This document shows positions 41,156 through 56,157 of a stretch of 64,000 nt of DNA, one piece after another (the first letter of the stretch is position 1; each line of letters opens with the position of its first letter). A model generated the notes under the pieces. It did not search any database. It was not told the DNA's origin and saw nothing but the letters and a program-made list of their open reading frames with translations. The translations under genes were made by a program, and so were the position numbers. This DNA is from Octopus vulgaris (Eukaryota). The stretch is from contig OX597819.1 of assembly GCA_951406725.2 (NCBI GenBank), forward strand, positions 9,672,001-9,736,000, written 5' to 3'.

Positions 41156-41287
41156 ATATATATACGTGTATGTAAACATTTCATGTGTATTCGTAGCTGT
41201 GTAAGCTTTTTCGTTTGACAAATCATTATTTTTAATTTATGTATATCTCAAAACTAACGTTTATTTTCTTGTTTCAATTTTTTCCAG

Positions 41288-41902
41288 CCGTCCAAGACAT
41301 ATATGGAGTTACACCAAACGCAAGGATTTACAGACGTGCGATGGCTGGTGTGTTTGTGAGAAAGGTAGTAGGGTATAACAATGATACCAAAGAGAAAGCT
41401 GTGTCTTACCAGCTGTTTACTCAGGGGGAACTGATATATTTCATGATTAATAAACACTCTGGTGAAATCAGCACAATGACAGCTATAGACAAACCTGTTG
41501 GTCATCAGTTCGCATTAAACATACGAGCTGCTTTCAAGGGAAACACTTTTCGGGATCGTCAACTTTTAGTTGATGTTGTTGAAAACAACAAAGAAGCACC
41601 ACAATTTTCAAAATCTTTATATTATTTCTTAGTCTTTCAGTTTGAAAAACCTGGCAAGACTATCGGCTATTTAAACGCCACCGATGAATCCAAAGAAGAC
41701 TATAACAGACAGATTACTTACGAGATACAAGAGCAAAAATATCCGATTCTATCTTTAGATAAACACAGCGGTCGCCTTCGACTCAATGATACGTTACGAC
41801 TTGATCTCAAGGATATCAACATCACGGTGAAAGTATCAGATAACGGCTTACCGTCAAAGACGGCATATGCATTGGTTAAAATCAAAATTGTCGGTCTACC
41901 AG
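41288..41902 (+). CDS. Coding exon 2: two cadherin-like repeats
   Basis: Acceptor ttttttccag, donor AG|gtgagc, 615 nt, phase 1-1; motifs FMINKHSGEIST, VENNKEAPQF, IGYLNATD, SLDKHSGRLRL, VKVSDNGLPS. Confidence 0.9.
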
Positions 41903-42280
41903 GTGAGCAAACGAAACTATTCACAAAACTGTTTTCGGGAAAGTAGTGGCCACGACTCAGTTATAGCTCATTGGCTGTGCTATAACCGTCGCACTCATAT
42001 TACATACATGCACACGCACAAACATACACACACGCACACACATACACATACATACACATACACACAGATGACCTCGGGTTGGTCAGTTGAGCCATACTTT
42101 CAAATGAAACCTTTCTAATTTTAGCCCTTATCCTGAAAGATTAAGGCCCAGTTGCGGGATAGAATGAACAATTGATTTACAGATATTAATAGGAAAACGT
42201 CCCCGTCCTCTGAACCCCGTTTCTTCCTATCCTCAGTGTGTGTGTGAAATTTGTCTACATCATCAACAAAAACAAGAGAT

Positions 42281-46975: not shown

Positions 46976-47218
46976 AGAAAAAAGCAACAAAAATGGATCA
47001 GTATTTCGGTACAATTGTTTCATACGAAGACCAGCTTTATTAAGGCTGCAAATATTGCAGCAAATACAAGTGACTCGTACTCATCAGCCAAAAACACATC
47101 TGAGTTCTCCAAAAATCTAAGGGGGTGAGGCTACACTCATGAAACATCAGGGATAGTTCTATAAAAATCAGATTTAGATAATAAATGGACTTCCAAAGTT
47201 CTCTAATGTTGCACAGTC

Positions 47219-49410: not shown

Positions 49411-49805
49411 CTAGCAGTATCACCCGGCGTTGCTCGGGTTTGTAAGGGAAATAACAATATAAGCATTTTTAGAGATGTAAAGTATAATAGCCATCTCAAT
49501 ATGGCTAACCACAAAGGGGGGTGTTACTGTAGCTTTTTACGTTCTGAGATTTAATAATAAATTTTTAGAGAGTTACTTCCCTTATATATGCCAAAAATGC
49601 ATTAAAAATGGGAAAAATTTATGGTAATTTCTTTTTTAAATCGTAGACTCATCGTAGACGCGCGCTAATACCCAGAAGGGCTCGATATGAATCACGACTA
49701 TAAGATACCCGGTTTTGGTTAAACTGCACCGCAAAATGTGGGAGTAGTTAGGAATCTAAATCGTAGGAGACAGACAGCACACAACCTCTCTTTTATATAT
49801 AAAGA
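49411..49805 (-). mobile_element. Non-autonomous Helitron just upstream of the EGF exon
   Basis: Reverse complement of the family; ends about 84 nt before the exon start. Confidence 0.85.
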
Positions 49806-49888
49806 CTATATTAATACATTATATTTAAAACACTTTTATTATAATATCCATGATGCTTATATTGTTCTCTTTTCATCTTTCCTTTTAG

Positions 49889-51382
49889 TTCATATGCGCC
49901 CGGACTGTGACAAATTCGACCAATGTTTAATTCGCTCTCCATGTGCCCATGGGGGAACGTGTGTTTCGAAAGCTAATAATTTCACCTGTCACTGCACTCG
50001 AGGCTGGCGAGGCGAAACATGTGAGAATGAAGATACATGTGCTCACAAAGTCTGCTTGAACAACGGCACTTGTAAGATGACGTCCCACAACGAATTCAAG
50101 TGTAAATGTCCGGATGGATATGTTGGTGAGTTTTGCGAGTTCTCAAATCCATGCACATCTATTCCGTGCCAAAATGGCGCCGCGTGTAGAATACGTTCTA
50201 ATGCCACTTTTCAGTGCGATTGCTCTCCAGGATACTCCGGTGAAGTGTGTGACTCATTGGACCCATGTGGTTTGAAACCTTGCAAAAATGGAAAGTGTAT
50301 AGCAGTTACCGAAAAGGATTTTAAATGTCAATGTAAATCTGGTTACACTGGACCACTGTGTGATGTGTTTAATTTTTGTAGCTTACATAACCCTTGTCAT
50401 AATAATGGAACTTGTATTCCTACACAGAAAAACTCCTATAAATGCAAATGTCCAACGAAATATAGGGGTAGGAATTGTTCTTACCTCGATCCCTGTATTG
50501 CTATTAATTGTCAAAATGGAGGAACATGTCATATCAGCAATATTACAGGAAAGCATTGTTTGTGTAAACCTGGTTTTATTGGAGGAGAATGTCAAAGGAG
50601 GGATTTATGTTATCTCTTGAAACCCTGCAAAAACGGTGGAACCTGTATCATGAACGATAACGACACGTACAAGTGCCTGTGCGTGAATGGTTCTATAGGG
50701 GGCCAATGCCAGTTATGGGACCCGTGCATTTCGGCAACATGCCCGTCCAATAAATCGACAGGGTGTGTCAGGTTATCGGACATTGCATACCGATGTAAAT
50801 GTAAAGCCGGTTACACGGGGGACCTCTGTGATTTGGACGCATCTGGTTGCCAATTTTCCCCTTGCAAGAATAATGGCTCGTGTCATTTGGCATTTGACAC
50901 ACCTGCAGGTTACAAGTGCCGATGCGCAGGGGTGTATTCAGGAATCCACTGTGATGAGTGGGATCCATGTATGATAAATAGTTGTTATAATGGAGGTACC
51001 TGTTTAAAATTGAATGGTGGAAGCTATACCTGTTCATGTCCAAAGGGTTATGTAGGGAAAATGTGTGAAATAGAACTAGCCTGTCATAAAGATATTTGCT
51101 TGAACGGTGGTCAGTGTTTGGTAATTTACAAGCAACACGTATGTGTTTGTTTGGAAAACTTTACTGGTCTTTATTGTCAGGAAGAAATAACATGCCAAAA
51201 TGCAACATGTTATAATGGCGGGTTTTGTAAAAACAACGGCGTTTGTCAGTGTTTGCCAGATTTTACAGGTGAACATTGCGAAACTGTAAATCCTTGTCAT
51301 TCAAACCCGTGTCTTAACGGTGGAACTTGTCGAGGAACTACCGATGGTGGATTTAACTGTACATGCATGCTTTCCTTTGAAG
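49889..51382 (+). CDS. Coding exon 4: about 13 tandem Notch-type EGF repeats
   Basis: Acceptor ctttccttttag, donor AG|gtaaga, 1494 nt, phase 1-1; repeated C-x(4-5)-CxNGGTC...CxCxxGY/FxGxxC; the last repeat lacks its sixth Cys, implying a further exon. Confidence 0.95.
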
Positions 51383-54833: not shown

Positions 54834-55071
54834 AAAAAATAACGAATCCACACGACTCAGATTAGCTACATACGCGTTTCGAGATTAAAGTAAAGTTATA
54901 TTTACTTACTTATTTCTCATCTTCAGCGCAGCATTTCGAAATATAAATTTGAGAGTGTTAGGATTAAATATGTACGCGATCAAAGGCCATGAGAAATAAG
55001 TAAATATAACTTTACTTTAATCTCGAAACGCCTATGTAGCTAATCTGAGTCGTGTGGATCCGTTATTTTTT
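54834..55071. mobile_element. Fold-back element 2 (about 85 bp inverted arms, carries a hammerhead)
   Basis: Arms 54834-54920 and 54989-55071 are near-perfect reverse complements; the right arm is truncated within the ribozyme core. Confidence 0.85.
54865..54932 (-). ncRNA. Type I hammerhead ribozyme (minimal, Penelope-type)
   Basis: Minus strand: gctgcg-CTGAAGA-t-gaga...tctc-GAAA-CGCG-TA-tgtagc; stems I and II pair; palindromic CGCG in stem III. Confidence 0.8.
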
Positions 55072-55225
55072 ATTTTTTCCCTACGTAAAAAAGTGCGTTG
55101 CTTTCTGGGAGATCTTACGTGCTAGTAGAAAAGGCATTTTAGCTTCTATTTCTAAATTCGGTGCGTGGTGAAGCAATTAGCTGAACCCTGATTATAATTA
55201 TGTTTATAAATATAGAATATTTGTC

Positions 55226-55411: not shown

Positions 55412-55489
<78 letters not shown>

Positions 55490-55495
<6 letters not shown>

Positions 55496-55929
55496 GTTTA
55501 AGAGATAGATCCACCTTCAAGCAACTCAAACAACATTGAACGACATTATCTATGATAGAGATATATAAGATTAAATTTTATCAAATTAATCTCTACATAT
55601 GTTCTTTATTTAGTAATGAATAATTATTTCGACGATTTCTAGTTGTATATTTTTGATTGTCATGTCTTTATATAGGATGTAAATAGTAAAAGAGTTTTAT
55701 ATAATCCAGACCTGAAGATTGGCAGTATAGTCGGATTGATCTATTTCAGCAATACTGATAGATATATTGTCAAGAAACGCGCGTTGTCTATATAATTTAA
55801 TATATGACTCAGAATAGTAATTGTAGTGATTAATTTTATAAAATTTAATTTTATATATCTCTATCATAGATAATGTCGTTCAATATTGTTTGAGTTGCTT
55901 GAAGGTGGTTCTGTCTCATAAACCTATCT
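55490..55929. mobile_element. Fold-back element 3 (about 108 bp arms, hammerhead in the spacer)
   Basis: Arms 55490-55597 and 55822-55929; abuts (GATA)n. Confidence 0.85.
55697..55795 (+). ncRNA. Type I hammerhead ribozyme with possible pseudoknot
   Basis: ttatat(aatcc)agac-CTGAAGA-ttggcagtat...atattgtcaa-GAAA-CGCGCG-TT-gtctatataa; 10-bp stem II; the stem I bulge aatcc is complementary to ggatt in the stem II internal loop. Confidence 0.85.
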
Positions 55930-56157
55930 GTATATATATGTATATGATACAGCGAGAAATTCGTTTTAGTACCACTAAATTGAATTTCTCTCCCCTGTGA
56001 ACTCGAAAATAACTTCTTTAATATCAATAATTATATAAATATACATATATATATACATACATATATATATATATATATACACATACACATATACATACAT
56101 ATATACATACATGTATATATACATATATATATATACATATATATGCATATATATATA

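Follow-up and report, generated by a model that had tools for sequence, protein, structure and literature searches.

A short palindromic helix III in the hammerhead ribozymes of Penelope-like elements (PLEs) was linked to cleavage as a dimer and to low activity (PMC4209133; PMC6765202). Hammerheads of invertebrate retrozymes with a stem III of 2 bp and tertiary contacts are described as cleaving efficiently in the monomeric form, and in the same report the monomer of an axolotl hammerhead with 2 bp and a U.U mismatch is given as 22% cleaved after one hour (PMC7229834). In a tested pseudoknot hammerhead the addition of 1-2 bp to the stems substantially lowered the activity (PMC3088659). Among PLEs, the Hydra clade is characterized by the marks DKT (replacing DKG), RWK, CxCX5C, YIG, CxxC and CxH (PMC8557442).

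Here we describe a hammerhead located in the window, the whole stretch of 64,000 nucleotides of Octopus vulgaris DNA that was analysed. A preliminary description had proposed a hammerhead of a PLE that is braced by a pseudoknot between AAUCC, bulged out of stem I, and GGAUU, looped out of stem II, and that may be active as a monomer. The locus is probably best read as the type I hammerhead in the 3' repeat of a decayed PLE which is likely to need a second copy to cut well, with AAUCC and GGAUU probably not forming a working pseudoknot. On balance, both the pseudoknot and the monomer activity are probably incorrect.

The element and its hammerhead

The copy in the window consists of the direct 3' end (pseudo-LTR) of the element and an inverted, 5'-truncated copy of the same end (Table 1). 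The inverted arm is identical at 107 of 117 positions to the reverse complement of 55822-55938; the fold-back arms are 94% complementary over 108 nt, about 6-9% diverged, and adjoin a (GATA)n run. Microsatellite flanks and fold-back arms also occur at L035 and L041, which fits insertion into (TA)n with an inverted 5' arm. The direct end shares 81-89% sequence identity with other genomic copies and with the 3' end of L035, where the same end is joined to a broken frame for reverse transcriptase (RT) and GIY-YIG and is accompanied by an inverted 5' arm. In the genome of 2.8 Gb, 40 relatives of the 3' end were scored out of 468 candidates. Of 9264 RT candidates 150 were scored, and none of these has an intact frame of the subfamilies A and B (see below); the next best match is 76% identical. 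It is mainly the one broken copy L035, together with the sister copy L037, which suggests that the 3' end belongs with this RT.

The order of RT followed by a C-terminal GIY-YIG endonuclease is seen in the broken copy L035 and in intact relatives at about 68% RT identity; Pfam delivered only a weak GIY-YIG match for a neighbouring fragment and none for the intact frame. The motif CxCX5C is readable in L035 and in four of five related frames, CxxC and CxH in all five, where they flank the conserved E and N as Hydra-clade marks. The related intact frames at about 68% RT identity contain DKT, CxCX5C, YIG, CxxC and CxH. The relative L045 possesses DKT, but KWK instead of RWK; the copy from the element's own family is 5'-truncated. 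On these sequence features the element is probably a Hydra-clade PLE. The family at about 68% RT identity (L045:1109-3619, L046, L048 and others) looks young, because many of its copies retain open frames of 820-860 codons. In L045 and L046 the frame is preceded at a distance of 270 nt by the hammerhead and is followed by a long stretch that looks unrelated.

From the loci analysed 105 hammerhead-bearing stretches were extracted. Five were dropped (two from other families or non-matches, one indel-shifted copy and two truncated copies) and three were reclassed, leaving 100 copies for analysis: 32 of subfamily A, 10 of B, 4 of A2, 25 of C1, 10 of C2 and 19 of C3. In a tree of 97 ends A/B is split from C with full support. 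The window copy groups with subfamily B, in a clade with a support of 98/88 (bootstrap not fully settled).

Table 1. Features of the hammerhead copy and of the host exon region in the window
Feature	Position	Strand	Remarks
Host exon region, EGF repeats	49723-51382	+	Ends at GT donor; Pfam EGF E 6e-60
Fold-back arm, an inverted copy of the 3' end of the element, 5'-truncated	55481-55597	-	Without hammerhead
Direct 3' end (pseudo-LTR) of the Penelope-like element	55600-56078	+	Right edge approximate, merges into (TA)n
Distal stem I, 5' strand, UUAUAU	55697-55702	+	Pairs with AUAUAA 55790-55795, 6 A-U pairs
AAUCC	55703-55707	+	Bulged in window copy
Proximal stem I, AGAC	55708-55711	+	Pairs with GUCU 55786-55789
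Catalytic core C3-A9, CUGAAGA	55712-55718	+	From sequence
Stem II	55719-55773	+	55 nt in window copy
Stem II proximal helix	55719-55728/55764-55773	+	Reaches 11 bp with 55729/55763
GGAUU, proposed pseudoknot strand	55733-55737	+	Predicted paired inside stem II
Core G12-A15.1, GAAA	55774-55777	+	From sequence
Stem III octamer ACGCGCGU	55777-55784	+	Perfect palindrome
NUH triplet	55783-55785	+	GUU, in order after CUGANGA and GAAA
U17, predicted cleavage 3' of the base	55785	+	From position relative to core; GUU triplet
UGACU, putative eroded remnant of downstream GGAUU	55805-55809	+	From subfamily comparison
3'-terminal motif common to related families	55905-55917	+	119 nt past the cut

Three helices surround the core and are open at stem I, the arrangement of a type I hammerhead. 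In this respect the preliminary description holds: its sequence words and coordinates are all present, a pair-by-pair check found no bad pair in the helices that it named, and the intact core, the three helices, the predicted cut 3' of 55785 and the assignment to a PLE are supported. Its account of the stems is valid for the named helices and incomplete in that the palindromic stem III was missed. The proximal stem I is paired in 95% of the cells of an alignment of 34 copies and is swapped for CCAC/GUGG and UCGG/CCGA in other families. The distal stem I occurs in A/B only and contributes about 0 kcal/mol after the cost of the 5-nt bulge (-9.2 vs -9.3 kcal/mol). The cleavage triplet GUU of the window copy is GUA in most A and C1/C2 copies.

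A descriptor scan of 104 kb (the window and 40 kb downstream) detected the focal hammerhead and two other loci, with no match in 10 shuffles, and a pattern of the family gave 105 matches in the genome vs none for the reversed pattern. The hammerhead exceeds chance expectation; core conservation among the copies is excluded as evidence, the copies having been chosen by core match. Rfam does not report the hammerhead at the gathering score or at E values up to 5, probably because of the long stem II, and the region folds no better than shuffled sequence (z = -0.49).

The element appears to sit, in sense orientation, within an intron of a cadherin-EGF gene; further exons may lie between the two flanking EGF exons. 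Exons of this gene on the + strand are located at 41236-41946 in the window, in the EGF region of Table 1, at L196:3058-3198 and at L198:8437-8724; a phase-matched acceptor with the next EGF exon is found at L196:3058. The exons encode cadherin, many EGF repeats and a weak match to a hormone-receptor domain, a composition that resembles the ectodomain of an adhesion GPCR. A complete hammerhead, with its core at 54926 on the - strand, a stem II of 39 nt, stem III ACGCGU and a GUA triplet, is contained in a second fold-back element at 54855-55120, 770 bp upstream. The inverted arm of this element contains only the 3' half of the hammerhead, and the element is antisense to the host gene. A third hammerhead, from another family, is located on the - strand at 46990-47095, with a stem II of 59 nt and the palindromic ACAAUUGU; a relative is found at L036:4127.

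Stem II and the possible partners of AAUCC

The long stem II is a family trait, with 55 nt in the window copy, 69 nt in subfamily B, 78 nt in A and 73 nt in C. In the family layout a proximal helix of 9-13 bp is followed by a 10-nt bulge in the 5' strand and by GUAUUG/CAAUAC as the distal helix. In 34 aligned copies the proximal helix covaries between A/B and C at three pairs (C-G in 24 vs G.U in 7, G.U in 24 vs G-C in 8 and U-A in 25 vs U.G in 7). The window copy differs from all other A and B copies (42 in total with the window copy) by a deletion of 14 nt in stem II near 55739-55740 and by a U-to-A change at 55773, which replaces the U.U mismatch of the family. In closely related Penelope-like families of the genome, stem II ranges from 16-19 nt to 90 nt, being short in L041, L044 and L045 and long in L047, L050, L038 and L059; short- and long-stem-II families alike retain the core together with a stem III that is self-complementary.

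In the lowest-energy stem II of the window copy GGAUU is held paired by GUCGG/CUGAU and AUUG/CAAU. Its probability of being unpaired is 0.04-0.11 in the nearest-neighbour model, i.e. it is predicted to be 89-96% paired rather than looped out as had been proposed. The fold of stem II given in the preliminary description is 3.4 kcal/mol less stable than this predicted alternative; its outer helices (AUCUAU/AUAGAU and CAG/CUG) consist of valid pairs, but depend on the deletion seen in one of the 42 copies. Opening of GGAUU costs 2.0 kcal/mol in the window copy and 0.2-7.6 kcal/mol in copies with an intact GGAUU, and the AAUCC/GGAUU duplex yields -3.1 kcal/mol including initiation. Nearest-neighbour folding cannot score pseudoknots, and the result on the availability of GGAUU is a lean and no proof. 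The presence of GGAUU(G) in stem II would be accounted for by its predicted pairing with CAAUACCGAU across the stem. A hairpin with GUC-GGAUUG invading stem I (-5.6 kcal/mol) reaches a probability of at most 0.01 and was rejected as a switch.

Family C carries a second GGAUU, 15-17 nt beyond the proximal stem I, in 39 of its 54 copies; subfamily A does so in 8 of 32 and B in none of 10. This downstream word can form five pairs with AAUCC in 35 of 53 C copies and four or more in 48 of 53, and the predicted occupancy of the pairing is 0.97-1.0 in two C copies and 0.77-0.94 in one A copy. AAUCC may originally have extended stem I by this pairing, for which the basis is conservation and modelled energy, not covariation: no two-sided change was seen. 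In the mixed alignment the downstream pairing, with 75.1%, is no better than the pseudoknot, because A/B has lost the downstream word. In the clade of the window copy the word is UGAUU, then UGACU; on this branch the downstream partner would have eroded and the A-U-rich distal stem I would have replaced the extension. The GGAUU of stem II co-occurs with an intact downstream GGAUU in five of the eight A copies that retain the latter, and therefore predates the freeing of AAUCC.

Between AAUCC and GGAUU five Watson-Crick pairs and possibly a U.G pair can form, against a threshold of at least four pairs. The five pairs are possible in 26 of 42 A and B copies, in none of the four A2 copies and in none of the 54 C copies, although AAUCC is retained in 43 of the 54 C copies; GGAUU is missing at the corresponding place of stem II in family C. 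A 4-nt complement of AAUCC is present in C2 (GAUU, further along the bulge) and in A2 (GGAU) and is absent from C1 and C3. In the 34-copy alignment the pseudoknot helix is 74.7% paired, vs 90-96% for the other five helices. Since one half of the proposed brace is kept in related elements and the other is not, the match is probably coincidental. Together with the predicted pairing of GGAUU, this distribution argues against the functional pseudoknot that had been proposed, and the covariation among genomic copies, suggested earlier as a check, is negative across the subfamilies.

Within A and B, double changes at the pseudoknot pairs occur four times vs 1.3 expected, and two of them are compensating (C-to-U with G-to-A, in the single copies L141 and L027). 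These two compensations are at about chance level; there is a 1.44-fold background of co-change, and of the 22 one-sided changes 15 disrupt a pair. This comparison has little power, because the copies decay neutrally after insertion. When the 34-nt interior of stem II is shuffled, GGATT arises in 5% of cases, and a perfect partner for some 5-mer among the 15 bases preceding the proximal stem I arises in 45%; the complementarity of AAUCC and GGAUU is only modestly above chance. With the level of the 6-bp/4-bp contact of canonical hammerheads (PMC4209133) as reference, a rough estimate gives a distance of 17-24 A to be covered, with two backbone links on the return path spanning about 14 A. By this estimate the full fold of the preliminary description would require fraying of stem II. 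An alternative pseudoknot between the C1 bulge ACCCGA and UCGGGU, about 75 nt past the cut, was rejected; C3 alters the bulge and keeps the downstream word.

Cleavage by one molecule or by two

Taken alone, ACGCGCGU forms 2 bp and a tetraloop; in a dimer it forms 8 bp. The calculated energies of stem III are +2.4 kcal/mol for the hairpin and -13.3 kcal/mol for the dimer duplex. The octamer is self-complementary in 12 of 12 representatives, nine of which are perfect palindromes, and the centres CG, AU and UG can pair only between two molecules. This is the signature of dimer cleavage and speaks against the monomer activity that had been suggested for the copy. A short stem III is nevertheless compatible with monomer activity, because the monomers of PMC7229834 do cut. 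No second hammerhead on the + strand and no homologue was found in the window and 40 kb downstream (104 kb); the absence of a second hammerhead in the same transcript applies to the window copy only and not to the parent element.

In partial-tandem transcripts of the parent element, two hammerheads may swap strands via the palindromic octamer. The stem III built by the swap would have 8 bp, and the cut would follow the GUH triplet at a distance of about 120 nt from the element's end. In the host pre-mRNA the lone, mutated window copy is predicted to be slow or inactive. Three solo insertions of family C (L199, L200 and L201), which are about 150-160 bp long and located inside TA-rich runs, cover the element from the predicted cut to its 3' end; a control position 19 nt upstream of the cut gave one match, an internal deletion. 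Among family A/B insertions none has its 5' end at the cut, the nearest arms starting 4 and 7 nt downstream with junctions that are not clean. The three family C insertions are only a hint that long-armed hammerheads of this group cut, as the numbers are small, the TA preceding the cut may serve as microhomology and A/B contributed no case.

An unlikely alternative, which corresponds to the preliminary proposal taken as an innovation of one lineage, is that AAUCC changed its partner in A/B, left the downstream word and now forms a 5-6-bp pseudoknot with GGAUU(G), which braces stems I and II and allows monomer cleavage. Several changes specific to A/B agree with this: stem II contains GGAUU, with an extra G the CC can be taken up by the distal strand and GGAUU freed in full-length copies, and the new distal stem I bulges exactly AAUCC. 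The downstream word is lost stepwise (GGAUU to UGAUU to UGACU) in the 98/88 clade with the window copy, L141 and L027 carry compensating changes, and pseudoknots between stems I and II are reported for about 40% of non-repetitive hammerheads (PMC3088659). In the lineage of the window copy a pseudoknot could still form, because the downstream partner has eroded and the opening of GGAUU costs about 2 kcal/mol. However, in five of eight A copies GGAUU was already present in stem II beside the intact downstream word, and the compensations are single-copy transitions set against the 1.44-fold background and the 15 of 22 one-sided changes that break a pair. GGAUUG is also explained as the complement of the opposite strand of stem II; the window copy has lost the distal strand, so that GGAUUG is the only partner left for CAAUACUG, which counts against a change of partner. 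The rough geometry, moreover, needs fraying, while changes of 1-2 bp in the stems already harm the tested pseudoknot hammerhead (PMC3088659).

Less probable still is that the motif is functional in the parent element and that the window copy misfolds and does not cut even with a partner, its details being neutral decay. The predicted ground state differs from the hammerhead fold, the proximal stem I having a probability of 0.04-0.05 within the fragment of 99 nt and of about 0 once flanks are added, a prediction that ignores the contacts of the core and of the dimer. The private deletion and substitution, the divergence of the arms (about 6-9%), the broken state of the only RT-bearing copy found in the family and the persistence on the sense strand of the putative host intron would agree with such decay, but the palindrome and every base of the core are still intact, and stem II has gained a pair through the U-to-A change. 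That the resemblance to a hammerhead arose by chance in AT-rich repeat DNA, as the missing Rfam match and the z-score of -0.49 might suggest, is very improbable in view of the 0 matches in 10 shuffles, of related families sharing the core at the same place with swapped stem sequences, of the cross-family covariation that already contradicts it, and of Hydra-clade PLE hammerheads reported with the same core flanks (PMC8557442).

The window copy is an ordinary decayed retroelement end, in which hammerheads are established, and its hammerhead is a modest structural variant in a decayed copy. The interest of the family lies in a structured stem II that is several times the listed length and is missed by Rfam, and in a dated series of subfamilies in which the stem I extension appears to have been gained, eroded and replaced with the stem III palindrome retained. 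This series is a ready panel for how PLE hammerheads attain useful rates in vivo. It is doubtful that AAUCC moved within one retroelement family from a stem I extension to a pseudoknot far out on stem II and turned a dimer-dependent hammerhead into a monomer able to cut the host pre-mRNA; if true, this would mean that a tertiary brace evolved through an exchange of partners and that a ribozyme active as a monomer sits in sense orientation inside a host intron.

Comparison with known hammerheads

The hammerheads of Hydra-clade PLEs (Craig et al. 2021, PMC8557442) are, like the window copy, described as type I and near the 3' end, with a proximal stem I that is short, U on both sides at the stem II base, a short self-complementary stem III, (TA)n targets and an inverted 5'-truncated arm. 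In File S2 of that report the stem II of the Hydra entries measures 3-7 bp and its loops 3-10 nt, whereas stem II is structured and 55-78 nt long in the window family, and no pseudoknot is given in these entries. Our literature search found no paper that describes Hydra-clade hammerheads with a long structured stem II or a pseudoknot between stems I and II; figures in the supplements of PMC4209133 and PMC7229834 could bear on this point.

With the dimer-type PLE hammerheads of Cervera and De la Pena (2014, PMC4209133) the window copy shares the palindromic helix III, the short helix I, a larger-than-usual helix II, the occurrence in mostly solitary truncated copies and the low activity to be expected. 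Helix II of these PLEs is given as 6-8 bp with a conserved G10.1-C11.1, whereas the corresponding position is U.U in the window family and U-A in the window copy. In the relatives of the window copy stem I can extend across a 3' bulge of 15-17 nt, unlike the PLEs of that report.

The pseudoknot-stabilised hammerheads of Perreault et al. (2011, PMC3088659) have in common with the window copy that a Watson-Crick match of 5-6 bp between the periphery of stems I and II can be drawn. In the described cases both strands are free and the stem lengths are tuned to the contact, whereas in the window copy one strand is predicted to be paired, is located 14 nt out on stem II and is not kept in the sister subfamilies.

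From the animal non-LTR retrozymes (Cervera and De la Pena 2020, PMC7229834; bioRxiv 10.64898/2026.07.22.740005) the window copy differs as the truncated end of a protein-coding element instead of a short tandem unit, and in having no canonical 6-bp/4-bp loop-loop geometry. Common to both are the type I arrangement, the 2-bp stem III with a tetraloop, and a monomer or dimer behaviour that is set by helix III and tertiary contacts.
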